From IMG/VR virus record IMGVR_UViG_3300044266_000359: a DNA stretch of 20,000 bases; one strand, 5' to 3'. The notes below the pieces were generated by a model. It saw only the letters and a list, made by a program, of their open reading frames with translations, made no database searches and was not told where the DNA came from. This stretch comes from an uncultured virus (IMG/VR IMGVR_UViG_3300044266_000359) (taxonomy: Duplodnaviria; Heunggongvirae; Uroviricota; Caudoviricetes). The translations under genes and the position numbers were made by a program. Below are positions 534 to 19,855 of the stretch, piece by piece; position 1 is the stretch's first letter; each line of letters starts with the position of its first letter.

Positions 534-994
534 AGAAAGTCTACTATGAAAAGATCGGGCGCAAATATGTGCCTGTTAGCGAGTACGATGGCGATTATCA
601 TCTGAGTTTTCCTAAAGGTAATCACCTTGTTATGTGTTATCCTGGTGGCTCCTCACGTAGGTTCAACGTCGAACCTGCCCTGGCTCCAATGATTGCTGCC
701 GGCCGCTTTGCTGAAGACAAAATGTGTGAAGCTGTTTATGAGGCAGCTTCCATGCATCGCCAAGAGCACCAAGGCACAGAGCTAACCCCCGAGCAACTTT
801 GCGCCTGGCGCAATTTTGAAAAAGTCATGGGCGAGCGTGGCAAGTATGTGCAATTCAAAAGCACACACGACATTGTAGGAGCTGGACTTCGGGTGTTGGA
901 AAAAGAAGCCGCTGAACTCATGACACACCCAGCAGTTCGTGACGCCTACGAACAGTTCCAAGCAGTTTGCAAATTGGTTAAACAAACCAGTTGA
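530..994 (+). CDS. hypothetical phage protein (154 aa)
   Basis: Long ORF coupled to the upstream gene by ATGA; no motif recognised. Confidence 0.8.
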   Translation: MKKVYYEKIGRKYVPVSEYDGDYHLSFPKGNHLVMCYPGGSSRRFNVEPALAPMIAAGRFAEDKMCEAVYEAASMHRQEHQGTELTPEQLCAWRNFEKVMGERGKYVQFKSTHDIVGAGLRVLEKEAAELMTHPAVRDAYEQFQAVCKLVKQTS

Positions 995-1018
995 CATCTA
1001 CGCAATCTGTTGTATAAT
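991..1018 (+). promoter_or_regulatory. sigma70-type promoter
   Basis: TTGACA (991-996), 16-bp spacer, TATAAT (1013-1018); both hexamers match consensus exactly. Confidence 0.8.
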
Positions 1019-1022
1019 CGCT

Positions 1023-1180
1023 AGGCATGGTCCAGGAGGTTGTGCTGCTCAATGGAGAAAGCGGAAACGATTGGTAACCTAGGTCCGCTAGAACCCGTGG
1101 CAAGTGAGCGTAAGTCACAGAGGTGAGACACTGTCTTGGAGAAATCCAAAACCCAGGCTGGTACCCTGGGGAGTATGCCT
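1023..1180 (+). ncRNA. putative structured non-coding RNA (~158 nt)
   Basis: Starts at the expected TSS. The ends pair (AGGCAU 1023-1028/AUGCCU 1175-1180; UCCAGG 1031-1036/CCUGGG 1165-1170). Internal hairpins: AGCGGA/UCCGCU (1060-1089), GUGA-G-C-GUAA-G-UCAC (1104-1118) and UUGGA-GAAA-UCCAA (1136-1149), the last two with GNRA tetraloops. Confidence 0.6.
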
Positions 1181-1210
1181 TAAAGAACTAAACAGTGAAA
1201 GGAATGAAAC

Positions 1211-1519
1211 ATGTCTGTTGAAATTGCGGTTTCTGCGTTGAGTATGCCGCAGTCCCTCGACTCTCTTAAATTGGAAACGCCCTTGACCATGCACCGTGTT
1301 GTTTTCGAAATCTCGTCAGTTGAAACATGGTACAAGATAATGGCCGAAGCAAGAGTGCAATTCGGCAAGAACTGGCGTGCTCAACCCAGAGTCAAGCGCA
1401 GACTCACCAGCTGGAGGAACACCACTCTAAAGGTTTGGTTTGAAGTGCCAGACTCGACTTTTGCAACCTGGTGTGCAGTTAAATTGGGTGTTCAAGCTGT
1501 GGGAGTAGTCAATAAATAA
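1211..1519 (+). CDS. hypothetical phage protein (102 aa)
   Basis: ATG preceded by an AAGGA Shine-Dalgarno; no family recognised. Confidence 0.75.
   Translation: MSVEIAVSALSMPQSLDSLKLETPLTMHRVVFEISSVETWYKIMAEARVQFGKNWRAQPRVKRRLTSWRNTTLKVWFEVPDSTFATWCAVKLGVQAVGVVNK
1511..1518 (+). promoter_or_regulatory. T4-late-like promoter box (AATAAATA)
   Basis: Ends 5 nt before the SD-less ATG at 1524. Confidence 0.5.
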
Positions 1520-1523
1520 ATCT

Positions 1524-2960
1524 ATGTTTCTCTCATGGTTAATGATGGGCGTGGCACTGAGTCTCAGTGTTATCGCCGCTTTTTATAGTATAGCAGGTTT
1601 GGCTGCTATTTTTGCCGCGGCGGTGGTTCCTATTGTGGTAATGGGAACAATATTAGAAGTCGCCAAGCTCACTGTCACAGTTTGGTTACACGAGTACTGG
1701 CCACGGTGCCGATTCCTTATGAAGGCATACCTGGTACCTGCGGTGGCATTGCTTGCTTTTATTACCAGTATGGGTATATTTGGATTTCTAAGCAAAGCAC
1801 ACAGTGACCAGGGCATGGTGTCAGGTGACGTGCAAGCCAAGATTGCCATTTACGATGAAAAAATTCAAACCGAACGGGAGAACATTGATGCAAATCGCAA
1901 GGCGCTTAAACAACTTGATGAGGCAGTGGACCAAGTTATGGCACGCTCAACAGATGAAAAAGGGGCCGATAAGGCCGTGGCAATACGGCGAGCCCAGCAA
2001 AAAGATCGCGCTCGTTTACTTGAAGAAATTAGCAAGAGCCAATTGCGGATTACCGCACTCAACGAAGAACGAGCTCCAATTGCGGCGGAAGTACGAAAAG
2101 TGGAGGCCGAAGTGGGCCCTATCAAGTATATCGCCGCCTTGGTGTATGGGGATAACACCGATGCAAACATTTTAGAACGGGCAGTGCGTTGGGTCATAAT
2201 TATTCTAGTAATTGTATTTGACCCATTGGCAATTATGATGCTGTTGGCTGCAACCGAAAGCTTCAAGTGGGAGAAAGAGCCGCCTGTGGCAGAAACTGTA
2301 GTTGATGATGACAAGATTCGAGAAACTGCCAAAGAGCAAGAGCCCGAAATACCAGCGGAGCCTGTGCCCGAAGTTGAAAAGTCTTGGCAAGAAAAGTATC
2401 CATATCTCACTAAACCTTTTGTGCATTTCAGTAATACCAAACCGGTAGTCTATTCGGGCAATCCTGCAGAGTTTCAACAACCTTGGCCGGAAGAGAAAAA
2501 ACAAGAGTTGGTCAAGGTAATGAAGGATATTTTCCCGTCGGACGATTGGTTAGACGGCGAAGAGCATGGTTCAGATGAAGAAAAGCAAGCCATAAGAGAA
2601 TGGAAAGCGGCTAATCCTGAACTCACAGTAAAAGCACAGCGAGAACTGCTGGCACGTGGTGAAATTACCGAACTACCTTGGGCAAGAAAACCCAATTCAA
2701 CTTTTGGATTTGTGTTTCCTTGGAGCCCAGAAAAAGGCGACACATTTATCAAAACAGATGTGGTGCCCAATGCAATGTACAAGTTTAACGGAACTCAATG
2801 GATGGCCGTTGACAAATCTGTGTTAGACAGTTATACTCATGATACTGCATACATTGATTATCTTATCTCCAAAATATCATCAGGTGAATATGATCCTGAG
2901 CTATTGTCTGAAGACTTGCGTGATCAAGTAGCTGAACGTATCAAACAAACTGACGCATGA
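1524..2960 (+). CDS. membrane protein with N-terminal TM helices, coiled coil, further TM helix and soluble C-terminal domain
   Basis: 478-aa ORF: hydrophobic N-terminal ~90 aa, heptad-rich segment, TM segment WVIIILVIVFDPLAIMMLLAA and an acidic/Pro linker. Confidence 0.85.
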   Translation: MFLSWLMMGVALSLSVIAAFYSIAGLAAIFAAAVVPIVVMGTILEVAKLTVTVWLHEYWPRCRFLMKAYLVPAVALLAFITSMGIFGFLSKAHSDQGMVSGDVQAKIAIYDEKIQTERENIDANRKALKQLDEAVDQVMARSTDEKGADKAVAIRRAQQKDRARLLEEISKSQLRITALNEERAPIAAEVRKVEAEVGPIKYIAALVYGDNTDANILERAVRWVIIILVIVFDPLAIMMLLAATESFKWEKEPPVAETVVDDDKIRETAKEQEPEIPAEPVPEVEKSWQEKYPYLTKPFVHFSNTKPVVYSGNPAEFQQPWPEEKKQELVKVMKDIFPSDDWLDGEEHGSDEEKQAIREWKAANPELTVKAQRELLARGEITELPWARKPNSTFGFVFPWSPEKGDTFIKTDVVPNAMYKFNGTQWMAVDKSVLDSYTHDTAYIDYLISKISSGEYDPELLSEDLRDQVAERIKQTDA

Positions 2961-6602: not shown

Positions 6603-6657
6603 ATACAGGTGCCGATGGTCGGGCCCGTATAACAAAGTCAACTTGCTTTATAAGGAG
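6603..6657 (+). promoter_or_regulatory. two-hairpin ROSE-like RNA thermometer leader of hsp20
   Basis: Hairpin 1 is AUAC-A-GGU-G-CCGA-UGG-UCGG-GCC-C-GUAU (6603-6630). Hairpin 2 is CUU-G-CUU-UAU-AAG-GAG (6642-6657). It is preceded by ATAAGTA (6593-6599). Confidence 0.78.
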
Positions 6658-6664
6658 AAATGAC

Positions 6665-7108
6665 ATGACTAAGACTTTAACACTACGCACATTCGATATC
6701 CCACAAATGCACAAGTTTGGGATTGGATTCGACAACATGTTTGATGAACTCATGCGTGTTACATCACAACAACAAACCAATTATCCTCCACACAATGTGA
6801 TCAAAACAGGTGAAAACACCTTGATCATTGAAGTGGCTGTGGCTGGCTTTGCCGAAGGCGAAATTGACATTCAGGTGGAGAAAAACTTGTTGACAATTCG
6901 TGGCGAGCAGGCACGTGAAACAGATGCCAGTTGGGAATTTTTGCATCGCGGAATTTCCAGCCGTGATTTTAGCCAAGCTTTTACTTTGGCCGATCACGTG
7001 GAAGTAAAAAGCGCCAGCATTACCAACGGCATTTTGAGTGTGTTTTTGGAACGCAAGATTCCAGAAGAAGCCAAGCCAAAGAGTATTGCTATTACCTACA
7101 ATAAGTAA
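6665..7108 (+). CDS. ibpA: small heat-shock protein, Hsp20/IbpA family (147 aa)
   Basis: IGFDNMFD, NYPPHNV, IEVAVAGF, FLHRGIS, NGIL and the C-terminal IAI (IxI) motif. Start moved to ATG 6665, 7 nt after AAGGAG. Confidence 0.95.
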   Translation: MTKTLTLRTFDIPQMHKFGIGFDNMFDELMRVTSQQQTNYPPHNVIKTGENTLIIEVAVAGFAEGEIDIQVEKNLLTIRGEQARETDASWEFLHRGISSRDFSQAFTLADHVEVKSASITNGILSVFLERKIPEEAKPKSIAITYNK

Positions 7109-10954: not shown

Positions 10955-10983
10955 TTGACAAATAAACCCAATACGTGTATAAT
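10955..10983 (+). promoter_or_regulatory. consensus sigma70 promoter of uvsE
   Basis: TTGACA-17 bp-TATAAT; the ATG follows 6 nt later. Confidence 0.85.
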
Positions 10984-12349: not shown

Positions 12350-13801
12350 ATGATAAGAACTATCACTGCGGGGTTACTTGCCGTTTCAATGGCCGGAGCC
12401 GTTTCCGCACAAACTCTAATTAATCAAAGCTCTATATCCAGTGGATATGGATCTGCTAGCTTAATAGATACCAACAGTACTTCTAACTCAGTTAGTACTG
12501 TTAATACCACAAATACCAGCACAGCTACGACTAACAGCACCGCTACCAGTACTGTTACGTCCACCAACGTAAACACCAACAACAACGTAAACAGTGGTGC
12601 TGTGACTTATACCAACAACAACGTAAACAGTGGGTCGGTAACCTATACCAACAACAACGTTGCGTCGGGGGAAGTAACATACAACAACGTAAACAGTGGC
12701 ACAGTGAATTACAACAACACAAATACCAGCACTGCCACAAATACTAACAACAACACAAATACCAGCACAAGCACCAATACAAACACAAACAACAACACAA
12801 ATACCAACACCAGTACCAGCACTGCTACAAACACCAACAATAACACAAATACCAGTACCAGTACCAATACAAACACAAACAACAACACAAATACCAACAC
12901 AAATACCAGCACATCAACCAACACCAACAACAACACAAATACCAACACTAGTACCAATACAAACACCAATACAAACATAAACACCAATAACGGTACTATG
13001 AATTACAACAACACCAACACAAGCACAGCCACTAACACAAACAACAACACCAGTACCAGTACTGCAACTAACACAAACAACAACACCAGTACTAGCACCA
13101 ACACAAACACCAATAACAATACCAACACATCAACTAGTACCAACACAAACACCAATAACAATACAAGTACCAGTAACAACGTGAACACTAACACAAATAC
13201 CAGTACTGCTACAAATACTAATACCAACAACAATACCAATACCAGTACAAGTAACAATGTGAATACAAACACCAATACGTCGACTAGCACCAGTACAAGT
13301 AGTAACAACAACGTCAACCAAAACGTACAAACTGGAGACATGACCAATCGTAATATTAACGATACTACAATTACACAAAAGATTATTCAGCCTCCACCAA
13401 CTGCTATTGCTCCAATGATGATGAGCGGCGGCAACCAAGACCTGTGTACAACTGGCACATCCAGTGCTGTACAAACACAAATCTTTGGTGTGTCAACAGG
13501 CGGTACAGTACGTGACTTGAATTGTGAACGTTTGAAGTTGAGCAAGACATTGTTTGATATGGGTATGAAAGTTGCTGCCGTTGCTACAATGTGCCAAGAC
13601 AAGCGTGTTTGGGATGCTATGATGGCTGCAGGAACACCTTGCCCATACGAAGGCAAGATTGGTGAACAGGCCAAGGCTGCATGGGAAGCAAACCCAACCA
13701 AGGTACCACCTGAACCAGAAAAGGAAGTGAAAGATGACACTTATCAGAAAGTTGGCTTTGGTGCTCTTATTGGCATCTTGGTTAACAAGTGGTTCAACTA
13801 A
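12350..13801 (+). CDS. secreted protein with long Asn/Thr/Ser repeat region and Cys-containing C-terminal domain
   Basis: Signal peptide ending AVSA-Q, ~250-aa N/T tract, then PPPTAIAP...DLC...NCERLK...MCQD...GTPCP and a hydrophobic tail. Confidence 0.88.
   Translation: MIRTITAGLLAVSMAGAVSAQTLINQSSISSGYGSASLIDTNSTSNSVSTVNTTNTSTATTNSTATSTVTSTNVNTNNNVNSGAVTYTNNNVNSGSVTYTNNNVASGEVTYNNVNSGTVNYNNTNTSTATNTNNNTNTSTSTNTNTNNNTNTNTSTSTATNTNNNTNTSTSTNTNTNNNTNTNTNTSTSTNTNNNTNTNTSTNTNTNTNINTNNGTMNYNNTNTSTATNTNNNTSTSTATNTNNNTSTSTNTNTNNNTNTSTSTNTNTNNNTSTSNNVNTNTNTSTATNTNTNNNTNTSTSNNVNTNTNTSTSTSTSSNNNVNQNVQTGDMTNRNINDTTITQKIIQPPPTAIAPMMMSGGNQDLCTTGTSSAVQTQIFGVSTGGTVRDLNCERLKLSKTLFDMGMKVAAVATMCQDKRVWDAMMAAGTPCPYEGKIGEQAKAAWEANPTKVPPEPEKEVKDDTYQKVGFGALIGILVNKWFN
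12575..13320 (+). repeat. coding tandem repeats: three 36-bp units plus one shortened unit (TNNNVxSGxVTY), then degenerate NTNNNTNTSTST-type units
   Basis: Units start at 12575, 12611, 12647 and 12683. An AC-rich low-complexity tract follows, with variable synonymous Thr/Asn/Ser codons. Confidence 0.9.
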
Positions 13802-17481: not shown

Positions 17482-17486
17482 AGTAC

Positions 17487-17537
17487 ATAGGACGCTGAAT
17501 AGGTCGGGTCCTATAGTAGACTTGCTTACTTAAGGAG
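17487..17537 (+). promoter_or_regulatory. third copy of the two-hairpin ROSE-like leader
   Basis: AUAGGAC-G-CUGA-AUAGG-UCGG-GUCCUAU (17487-17514) and CUU-G-CUU-ACUU-AAG-GAG (17521-17537). Confidence 0.72.
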
Positions 17538-17543
17538 AAAATT

Positions 17544-17825
17544 ATGTTTACACTAGACGCAACCATCGACGCCGTACAAAACGGTAAAAAACAATTCGTT
17601 AACACTTTCGTTCCAAACGAAAGCGTAAAAGAAACACTGAATAATTTCATTGACGCCCAAGCCGAATACACCAAGGCTGCGGTCAAAGTCGGACAAGACA
17701 CAGCTACCAAGTTGGCTAGCGAAATGACCAAGGCCATTGGCGAAGCTGCCAAGTTTGACTACACCAAGTTTGGCGAAGGCGTAATGAAGGCCTATGACAA
17801 CTTGGCCAAAGCCACTAAAAAGTAA
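17544..17825 (+). CDS. small amphipathic helical protein, putative phasin-like (93 aa)
   Basis: The ORF itself is solid (AAGGAG SD, terminator). The phasin-like call is inferred from Ala/Lys-rich amphipathic helices and the PhaR-type box. Confidence 0.55.
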   Translation: MFTLDATIDAVQNGKKQFVNTFVPNESVKETLNNFIDAQAEYTKAAVKVGQDTATKLASEMTKAIGEAAKFDYTKFGEGVMKAYDNLAKATKK

Positions 17826-17874: not shown

Positions 17875-17903
17875 TTGACCAGTAATTCCCGTTTTGTTAT
17901 AAT
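17875..17903 (+). promoter_or_regulatory. sigma70 early-type promoter, copy 1
   Basis: TTGACC-17 bp-TATAAT with extended -10 (TGt). Confidence 0.85.
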
Positions 17904-17909
17904 TTGAAC

Positions 17910-18119
17910 ATGGAAACACTAGCAAAACAAATTTTTCAAGAGAATCCCATCATTGCATCCGAGAGCATGTTGCTGAGTCTGGGGTTTGAACGTATGCGAA
18001 AAGAACAAGGATCCAAGGCTGCTCGTTATTACTTTTGGTATGACGAGGACTTCCCTGCAGACTATGTCAGTGAGTACTTTTGGCTGCAACGTCAGGTTCG
18101 AATCGGGGTTGACCAATAA
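17910..18119 (+). CDS. hypothetical phage protein (69 aa), probably leaderless
   Basis: ATG 6 nt after the -10 box; no SD. Confidence 0.7.
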   Translation: METLAKQIFQENPIIASESMLLSLGFERMRKEQGSKAARYYFWYDEDFPADYVSEYFWLQRQVRIGVDQ

Positions 18120-18137
18120 TTCCCATTTTGCTATAAT
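18109..18137 (+). promoter_or_regulatory. sigma70 early-type promoter, copy 2
   Basis: TTGACC-17 bp-TATAAT with extended -10 (TGc); 29/32 identical to copy 1 including flanks. Confidence 0.85.
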
Positions 18138-18827: not shown

Positions 18828-19057
18828 TTGCAGCCTTGGTGTTGACCACAGCTGGTTGCACTACCAATCGTGCTCCGCCTGTTGATGTGAGACTCGTCCC
18901 TAATGATTGTGTTAACCGCCAACTGATAATAAACTATCTCAGTGAGCAAGCCGCACTGCCCCGCGGAACCCTTGAAAGCCAACAAGACTATGAACGTACT
19001 CGCGCAGAAATTCGTCAACGTATTTGGACCATGCGTTATTATTGCCAGCCTGTGTAG
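18800..19057 (+). CDS. putative lipoprotein
   Basis: Hydrophobic stretch followed by the lipobox TAGC. Confidence 0.72.
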   Translation: MVSTKVYGLIAALVLTTAGCTTNRAPPVDVRLVPNDCVNRQLIINYLSEQAALPRGTLESQQDYERTRAEIRQRIWTMRYYCQPV

Positions 19058-19280
19058 TGGTTGTGCAACAGGAACACCCAGCCGCGTGGCCATTGATCCC
19101 TATGACTTGAATTACTTTCAACCTGATTGCAGTCAAAAGGCACAGCAAATTGCATTTTTACAAAGTCTCCGCCGCAGTCCTGAAGATCGAGCATTCACGC
19201 TCAGTGGCTGGTTTGGTGTGGACGATCAAGTAAACTGGACCATTAACTCTCACATACTGTATCTCAAACAATACTGCTAA
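18990..19280 (+). CDS. putative lipoprotein (start uncertain)
   Basis: VIIASLCSGC lipobox-like segment; the following DC..K...I.FL pattern resembles the upstream lipoprotein. Confidence 0.62.
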   Translation: MNVLAQKFVNVFGPCVIIASLCSGCATGTPSRVAIDPYDLNYFQPDCSQKAQQIAFLQSLRRSPEDRAFTLSGWFGVDDQVNWTINSHILYLKQYC

Positions 19281-19840
19281 TGAAAAAATTATTGTTATTG
19301 ATTGCCTTGCCTGCTGTGGTTTCAGCGCAACAATGCGTGTTGCAAGACCGTACAGTGACTCGAGGTACTGTAGTCATCCAAGAGCGCAGTGAAATGCGAG
19401 CCGAAGTGGTACCAGCGTTTAACGGTGGCCGCAAGTGTATGGCCAGCTTTCGAGTACGAATTGGTGGCGAATGGCACAGCGCATTTGGTGAATACGAATG
19501 GCCTGGCGACCGACCCAGAGAAGAAGCCTGTGCTGTGGCTGTGAAACGTGCTGAAGATTCTGTGCGCGAGCGTGTGAGCCGGACTCAAGTTGTGACAGAA
19601 AAGACGTTGATTTGTTCAGACAATCCGGACCACCAAACCTTGCGGTCCATGAATCCTGGAACTATTGGCAAACTCAGCCAGTTCCGACCCCATCCTGATT
19701 TACCTCGTGAGTTTTGGCATAACGGTGCCCCATGCAGGTTCTTTTTGGATAGCACCTATACCGGATCCGATGTAAGGACTTGGCAAGGTGTGATTTGTAA
19801 GCTACAAGACTCAAATTGGGTAGTGGTTGACAAATTTTAA
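19280..19840 (+). CDS. secreted Cys-containing protein
   Basis: Signal peptide MKKLLLLIALPAVVSA-Q, six Cys, TAATG coupling. Confidence 0.82.
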   Translation: MKKLLLLIALPAVVSAQQCVLQDRTVTRGTVVIQERSEMRAEVVPAFNGGRKCMASFRVRIGGEWHSAFGEYEWPGDRPREEACAVAVKRAEDSVRERVSRTQVVTEKTLICSDNPDHQTLRSMNPGTIGKLSQFRPHPDLPREFWHNGAPCRFFLDSTYTGSDVRTWQGVICKLQDSNWVVVDKF

Positions 19841-19855
19841 TTTTGGTGCTATACT
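19827..19855 (+). promoter_or_regulatory. sigma70 promoter
   Basis: TTGACA-17 bp-TATACT with extended -10 (TGc). Confidence 0.8.

Follow-up and report, generated by a model that had tools for sequence, protein, structure and literature searches.

Natural RNA homo-oligomers have been described as rare, as far as the available parts of two reports go (PMC12286853, PMC12990946). Among them, OLE forms a dimer, whereas ROOL and GOLLD form nanocages and are encoded in phages and prophages; all three display elaborate covarying folds, and their symmetric kissing loops are recognised by switching palindromes, palindromic tetranucleotides that switch being the signature of the intermolecular loops of OLE and GOLLD shown by cryo-EM (available part of PMC12286853). 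OLE, ROOL and GOLLD are 550–833 nt long, and ARRPOF RNA from a Fusobacterium plasmid is a pseudoknotted homodimer of 255 nt with a kissing loop, for which the available part of the source describes no overlap with a start codon (PMC12990946).

Here, an RNA of about 270 nt carried by giant freshwater phages is described, which lies at positions 1025..1292 of the plus strand in a window of 20,000 nt (the whole stretch of DNA analysed) from an uncultured virus of the Caudoviricetes. Like OLE, ROOL and GOLLD it has an elaborate covarying fold and, like ROOL and GOLLD, it is encoded in phages; furthermore, the trait by which members of the OLE, ROOL, GOLLD and ARRPOF group are recognised, loop palindromes conserved via compensatory switching, was found. 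In size and in the presence of a pseudoknot it resembles ARRPOF RNA, from which it differs by its phage origin and its overlap with a start codon. With 231–304 nt among its homologs it has about half the size or less of OLE, ROOL and GOLLD and, unlike these, it overlaps a Shine-Dalgarno sequence, a start codon and 16–27 codons, and no tRNA was found in the 88-kb contig. The Rfam covariance models of OLE, ROOL, GOLLD and ARRPOF gave no match.

Folds over the Shine-Dalgarno sequence and the AUG that compete with ribosome loading are well known from the alpha-operon and rpsO operators and from the leader of the MS2 maturation gene. Compared with these, the present RNA is far larger and has a movable start codon, palindromic loops and no known ligand. 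Sponges of the CsrB/RsmZ type expose several GGA motifs in hairpin loops, whereas the GGA triplets that an earlier note on this DNA had pointed out, six within 1025-1210, are all located in or at the ends of stems, leaving the hairpin loops of the model without any. 6S RNA (RF00013) shares the pairing of the 5' and 3' ends and a strong promoter, but it is a rod of 160–200 nt with a central bulge between two helical arms (available part of PMC8414754), in contrast to the multibranched RNA of 231–304 nt described here, which has a pseudoknot and an ORF overlap and lacks a central bulge.

A literature search, with most subscription papers outside its scope, returned no description of this RNA. 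The candidates of a viral RNA screen are intergenic and at most 151 nt long according to the available part of that source, and a fragment of the RNA up to this length may be among them (PMC10690425). Since a third of the RNA lies inside a gene, it is missed by screens restricted to intergenic DNA. From these comparisons, our verdict is that it most probably represents a new RNA family, which would work like the ornate self-assembling RNAs, belong to none of them and enclose a translation start.

Extent and covarying fold of the RNA

The earlier note had proposed a self-contained structured RNA of 158 nt behind a consensus sigma70 promoter in the longest gap of the window. Promoter and gap were borne out: TTGACA-16-TATAAT at 991..1018 (+) matches the sigma70-type consensus perfectly, a score of 12/12 that only one other of the window's 33 promoter-like sites reaches, and the gap 995-1210 is with 216 nt the longest, provided that ORF 18942-19280 is counted. 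A promoter-driven structured RNA is therefore present; its length, closing stem, self-containment and likeness to 6S RNA had to be revised. The 158-nt unit folds no better than shuffled sequences (z -0.57), whereas the true span, with a start placed 6 nt after the -10 box and an extent given by covariance model R1, is 1025-1292, so that the fold enters ORF 1211. This model covers the window from 1025 to 1294 over its full length, and folding of 1025-1294 gave a z of -2.15.

The 5' strand of P1 (1025..1036) pairs with 1281-1292, corresponding to codons 24–28 of ORF 1211, and closes a multibranched fold with two multibranch junctions. Arm A (1041..1119) is composed of P2 (1041-44:1116-19), P3 (1047-51:1105-09), P4 (1052-55:1095-98) and P4b (1060-65:1084-89), and its segment GGCA (1099..1102) forms a pseudoknot with 1176-1179. 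It is followed by the 5' strand of helix X (1123..1129), of which 1125-28 pair with 1262-65 in the most conserved core. The P5 domain (1129..1197) contains a closing helix, a GAAA hairpin (1138-47) and a second hairpin (1152-70), and inside it the conserved AAAAC (1148-52) faces GGAGUA (1170-75), an internal element which we take to be loop-E-like. The segment 1199..1216 includes the Shine-Dalgarno sequence AAGGA and the AUG at 1211, with GGA 1201-03 pairing to UCU 1214-16 as P7, and the P6 hairpin (1217..1261) lies entirely within codons 3–17. At the 3' side, the core C.CUU..A.....AACG.C (1263..1281) is conserved at the nucleotide level beyond the need of the protein. All these elements are on the plus strand, and the RNA thereby holds the Shine-Dalgarno sequence, the AUG and the first 27 codons of ORF 1211. 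In both types compared, 28 positions are at least 90% conserved, most of them at one junction.

The fold was tested on 75 near-type sequences with a mean identity of 65%, left from 88 after dropping those at least 97% alike. A model of 69 pairs is paired in 92.2% of 5040 cells, compared to 82.3% after shuffling and 28–43% with slid partners, controls that favour the model since it was read from the first 24 sequences; 48 of the 69 pairs change on both sides, and the model also holds in 52 sequences found later. An all-pairs scan (36,046 pairs) is more sparing, with one significant pair under a simulated null and three under substitution shuffling, namely 1126-1264, a P5a pair and 1078-1083. 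Among 78 proposed pairs, 12 reached E<0.05 under both shuffling nulls, several of them from one or two events.

Support differs between the helices. Pair 1126-1264 of helix X ranks highest under all nulls, and the helix is paired in 75/75 near-type, in 19/19 distant sequences (with compensatory changes) and in 208/208 instances among the sequences found later. For P1, six compensatory events on the tree affect 1030-1287, 617 of 624 instances are paired in the sequences found later, and the four outer pairs form in 19/19 distant sequences with a change from U-A to G-C. Three pairs each are significant in P6 and, in a two-set test, in P3, whereas P2 is weaker (82.8% paired). The outer pair of P7 (RNAalifold, n=75) appears as A-U in 40, G-U in 19 and U-A in 16 sequences, and P7 is paired in 156/156 instances among the sequences found later. 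The pseudoknot is paired in 99% of cells and in 208/208 instances among the later-found sequences, with few compensatory changes, none of its pairs being significant in the covariation tests. Without guidance, RNAalifold recovered P1, P6, helix X and the three base pairs that cover the Shine-Dalgarno sequence, but not P2, P3, most of P5 or the pseudoknot. The single-sequence minimum free energy fold of the window (-85.3) lies 20 kcal/mol below the covariation model (-65.1 without the pseudoknot), with which it shares only P1 and two hairpins.

Covariation in homologs supports P1 as the closing stem, both multibranch junctions and P7, but not the closing stem proposed before (1025-29:1174-78). 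Although 99.2% of its 375 cells pair in the near type, none of the five pairs changes on both sides, and among 19 distant sequences three of these positions are able to pair in just 4, 6 and 2. The existence and conservation of the hairpins GGA-GAAA-UCC (1138-47) and CCCAGG/CCUGGG (1152-70) were confirmed, the latter as a part of the main fold and not as the alternative it was taken for. GGUCCGCUAGAACCC, said to recall 6S RNA, is located in a variable arm, and this motif as a search pattern returned only the window's own sequence. In Rfam (4227 families) neither 6S RNA nor any other family matched window 1025-1250 at E<=10 or 20 homolog loci at E<=5, including RNase P RNA, group I and II introns, tmRNA, T-box and known riboswitches, and ARAGORN detected no tmRNA; the new class mentioned as a further alternative in the earlier note is in line with this. 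Presumed likenesses to RNase P, a group I intron, T-box and segments of 16S and 23S were all dropped; the helix order found does not fit the ones to RNase P, T-box or rRNA motifs.

Distribution, setting and the overlap with ORF 1211

Homologs were collected along several routes. A search with ORF 1211 gave 7 loci, and a pattern from the hairpin at 1148-1170 gave 33, in all of which the ORF begins 35–41 nt past the pattern; one of these loci is truncated at the edge of its contig and another lacks an internal piece. With a protein profile, 186 relatives were obtained (80 kept); further searches gave, with a distant protein profile, 176 (80 kept), with a 3' pattern, 116 matches and, with a 5' pattern, 90 matches in metagenomes, comprising 83 homologs and 7 non-homologs. 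The model of the untranslated part matched 79 of the 81 loci examined, the two missed being L115, which has no upstream DNA, and L007, later recovered by the covariance model; the near-type covariance model found 26 other loci over their full length at E<=8e-10. Altogether, 164 distinct homologs from viral and metagenome contigs fall into a near (about 256–280 nt), a long (283–304 nt) and a short-arm (231–255 nt) subtype. The RNA is single-copy in the genomes checked, and a search of the window's genome for a second copy found none. Annotated phage records gave no informative match with DNA or protein queries.

Some individual loci deserve mention. In GTDB genomes, one of five pattern matches is the RNA (L325) and the remaining four fail the model; L325:364-633 is a full-length copy on a contig of 39 kb, from a MAG bearing the title Haliscomenobacter sp.; this contig is probably a binned phage piece and gives no host assignment. 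In L019, X and P1 have lost their 3' strands to an in-frame deletion of ~16 codons (about 1259-1400), which is either a natural variant or an assembly error. Four loci (L210, L230, L262, L139) carry an extra 12–15 nt between P1 and arm A, including a further palindrome-like stretch. In the long type, the GNRA hairpin is replaced by a longer loop (L117-L123, L129, L134, L147, L149), which can form at least 5 bp with the stretch preceding the 3' strand of P5 in 14/15 sequences compared to 124/210 in a cross control, so that a second pseudoknot is only a lead.

The window belongs to a virus record of 88.5 kb, and relatives with the same locus are near-complete phage genomes of 343–364 kb. It encodes a DNA ligase, ClpX, bS21, DnaK, Hsp20, ClpS, a desaturase, UDP-glucose dehydrogenase and UvdE. 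The same gene follows the RNA, on the same strand, in 33/33 loci, and its body follows in 60/60 metagenome loci with enough downstream DNA. Directly behind ORF 1211, a gene for a membrane-anchored protein (1524..2960, +) is present in 51/51 loci, followed by ClpX (2957) and bS21 (4155). OLE has been proposed to bind RpsU, according to the available part of the source; a link to bS21 was rejected here, since bS21 is also present in the RNA-less genome (5/5). A -10-like hexamer stands 5–9 nt ahead of the RNA start in 106/113 homologs by a permissive pattern, being TATAAT in 81, and a TTGAC -35 element occurs in 81/89 near-type but only 4/17 long-type sequences.

Elsewhere on the plus strand of the window, further near-perfect sigma70 promoters (11–12/12) are found at 10955-10983, 17875-17903, 18109-18137 and 19827-19855, one of which precedes the UvdE gene. 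ROSE_3 thermometer-like matches at 6603-6670 and 17486-17549 (+), directly 5' of the Hsp20 gene and of ORF 17544, score 23.4 and 29.6 bits and are thus below the gathering threshold of 43. A 483-aa ORF (12350-13801, +) shows extreme AT/GC skew, contains an extended low-complexity tract of Asn/Thr/Ser and gave no Pfam match.

Most of the sequencing runs in which a minor part of the stretch is represented are metatranscriptomes from aquatic, freshwater or riverine sources. RNA-library contigs from four studies, derived from relatives 80–100% alike, cover the RNA. Among the 11 contig pieces listed, loose ends included, all fall within about 1035-1285 and none extends into the ORF body, four stopping at about 1269-1285. 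These spans faintly hint at a discrete RNA; the contigs come from relatives and are broken at strain variants, and therefore cannot give ends, strand or level. A scan of the window found no intrinsic terminator behind the RNA. In RNA-bearing types, the 10 nt that follow P1 contain a mean of 5.7 and 6.2 U, compared to 3.7 in the one RNA-less clade.

ORF 1211 (1211..1519, +) encodes 102 aa, of which residues 1–27 lie within the RNA. An AAGG-type Shine-Dalgarno sequence and an AUG are located inside the RNA in 141 of 164 sequences, and in 140 of these 141 the distance from the AUG to the RNA end is a multiple of three (78, 81, 84 or 90 nt). No in-frame stop occurs in 104 unique overlap segments, and the reading frame that the RNA overlaps is under selection. 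At the same time, variants in the overlap are not concentrated at third codon positions (32/28/26 alleles) and 81/81 segments use CUU for one Leu codon, which indicates that the RNA shapes these codons. The position of the start codon differs among the subtypes. Sequences of the long and of the short-arm type have their AUG 48 nt from the RNA end, at the position of codon 12, so that the start codon is within the fold in every subtype and the overlap amounts to 16–27 codons. That the RNA core is kept while the start codon moves is unlike the prediction for a fixed switch at a ribosome-binding site.

Residues 1–27 of the protein are predicted to be unstructured and residues 28–99 to form a ferredoxin-like domain with a basic helix. 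The best fold match (Z 7.0, rmsd 2.8, 69 aligned) is generically ferredoxin-like, Pfam and PHROG gave no match, and protein family, atlas and fold searches returned no named function; by its size, the product appears too small for a reverse transcriptase, which, or else a nuclease, would be expected next to an RNA of the retron or OMEGA type.

In ten loci, a short protein starts directly behind the -10 box with neither the RNA nor the N-terminal extension. One such genome, 91% complete, has no RNA anywhere and keeps the gene order, and this lineage retains the ORF 1211 homolog with its basic motif as well as the following gene. The RNA-less loci cluster together (89/84) within a branch that also contains the long type (98/97), for which loss of the RNA is the simplest reading on a tree with few columns and rough support. 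In L418:4381-4401, the gene starts about 7 nt past the -10 box, so that in this lineage the mRNA is leaderless.

Palindromic loops and readings of the locus

The apical loop of arm A (1066..1083, +) carries two self-complementary hexamers, 1068-73, which is self-complementary in the window via G-U pairs, and CCUAGG at 1078-83, and is a predicted intermolecular kissing site. The 3' palindrome is perfect over 6 nt in 42 of 59 distinct near-type loops compared to 2.2 expected from shuffled loops, and occurs in 7 kinds. The palindrome 5' of it, which has no fixed alignment columns and was scored on extracted loops, is present in 34 of 59 near-type loops (6.0 expected) in 10 kinds, and most long-type loops also carry a palindrome. 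The pair 1078-1083 ranks third in the all-pairs scan, with E=0.28 under the simulated null. A coarser count gave 39/57 against 15.3 expected, and two control windows reached 30 and 32 of 57, probably due to conserved palindromes elsewhere in the RNA. Since control windows nearly match the count, and the sequences are related and thus not phylogenetically independent, weight is placed on the switching between palindromes and not on their number. The inner pairs of the palindrome are impossible within one strand, so that they are most simply explained by contact between two separate molecules, and we infer by analogy that the RNA may dimerise through this loop.

The reading that we favour, with moderate confidence, is that of an ornate phage RNA which dimerises with itself and which, once folded, precludes translation of the ORF that it overlaps. 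Here, a host-type sigma70 promoter would yield a transcript with two mutually exclusive fates. In the first, the transcript would fold into the ornate RNA of ~270 nt, P1 clamping +1 to codons 24–28, P7 covering the Shine-Dalgarno sequence and P6 and X locking codons 3–18, so that translation would not occur. Two copies would then pair via the palindromic loop of arm A into an RNA-only dimer, or a larger assembly using both palindromes, and might function in trans as structural RNAs of the OLE, ROOL, GOLLD or ARRPOF kind, with the discrete RNA released by trimming or stopping right behind P1. In the second, kinetically competing fate, a ribosome would load before the 3' helices form, read the ORF and melt the fold, leaving the transcript as an mRNA. 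This reading draws on the covarying fold, which holds in sequences found later and in the other loci matched by the near-type model, on the switching palindromes, on a core that is kept although the start codon shifts, on an N-terminal extension that is predicted to be unstructured, lacks third-position bias and is missing in the ten loci that lack the RNA, and faintly on the spans of the RNA-library contigs.

The most serious rival, a leader function for ORF 1211 that the earlier note already listed, is compatible with dimerisation but regarded as the less probable of the two: a translational switch (of the operator, riboswitch or thermometer-like kind) that would act mainly in cis on ORF 1211, the membrane protein, ClpX, bS21, DnaK, Hsp20 and ClpS, and whose OFF fold would be stabilised when a protein or ligand binds the conserved P1/P2/X junction or when RNAs kiss at high transcript level. 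The RNA is fixed at +1 before the same gene, as is typical of cis elements, and the pairing of the Shine-Dalgarno sequence is maintained by compensatory change; together with the start codon inside the fold in all subtypes, the high conservation concentrated at one junction and the move of the RNA-losing lineage to a leaderless start, this argues for such a switch. The fixed position, the covarying cover of the Shine-Dalgarno sequence, the missing terminator, the lineage that lost the RNA and kept both genes, the thin all-pairs covariation and the deviating interior of the minimum free energy fold all count against the self-dimerising RNA. The shifting start codon speaks against the switch, as does the search for a covarying ON structure, in which the sole candidate, 1025-29:1174-78, lacks covariation and fails in the long type. 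In addition, size, pseudoknot and two palindromes appear to be more than the cover of a ribosome-binding site needs. A variant that joins both ideas, a self-counting transcript whose copies, on building up during infection, kiss via both palindromes and lock the Shine-Dalgarno sequence and first codons, turning the mRNA into an RNA scaffold, is considered rather unlikely.

Other readings carry much less weight. It is improbable that the RNA is a ribozyme (self-processing, intron-derived or RNase P-like) cutting or maturing the operon transcript: size, long-range closing stem, pseudoknot and invariant junction core are ribozyme-like, but Rfam gave no match for the window or the 20 homolog loci, apparently nothing is spliced out since the reading frame is unbroken through the 3' third, and the RNA-library contigs contain no joints. 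Slightly less probable still is a dedicated ribonucleoprotein assembled from the RNA and the ORF 1211 product, whose ratio the overlap would fix. Strict linkage and a small ferredoxin-like fold with a basic helix can be cited for it; the basic motif is, however, kept in the RNA-less lineage and the fold matches are generic. The 6S mimic or CsrA sponge of the earlier note, suggested by the strong promoter and the six GGA triplets, is barely credible given the lack of an Rfam match, the multibranched fold of 270 nt and the placement of the GGAs in stems.

Meaning for RNA oligomerisation

Should the self-counting transcript be real, it would represent a dose-sensing form of translational control, exerted through homo-oligomerisation of RNA at the head of a phage gene run for ClpX, bS21 and DnaK. 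The known ornate RNAs have no established function, and the overlap with a start codon would here provide a direct readout. With its natural variants (long, near, short-arm and RNA-less) and swappable palindromes, this small family may therefore become a target for cryo-EM and reporter studies of RNA oligomerisation.
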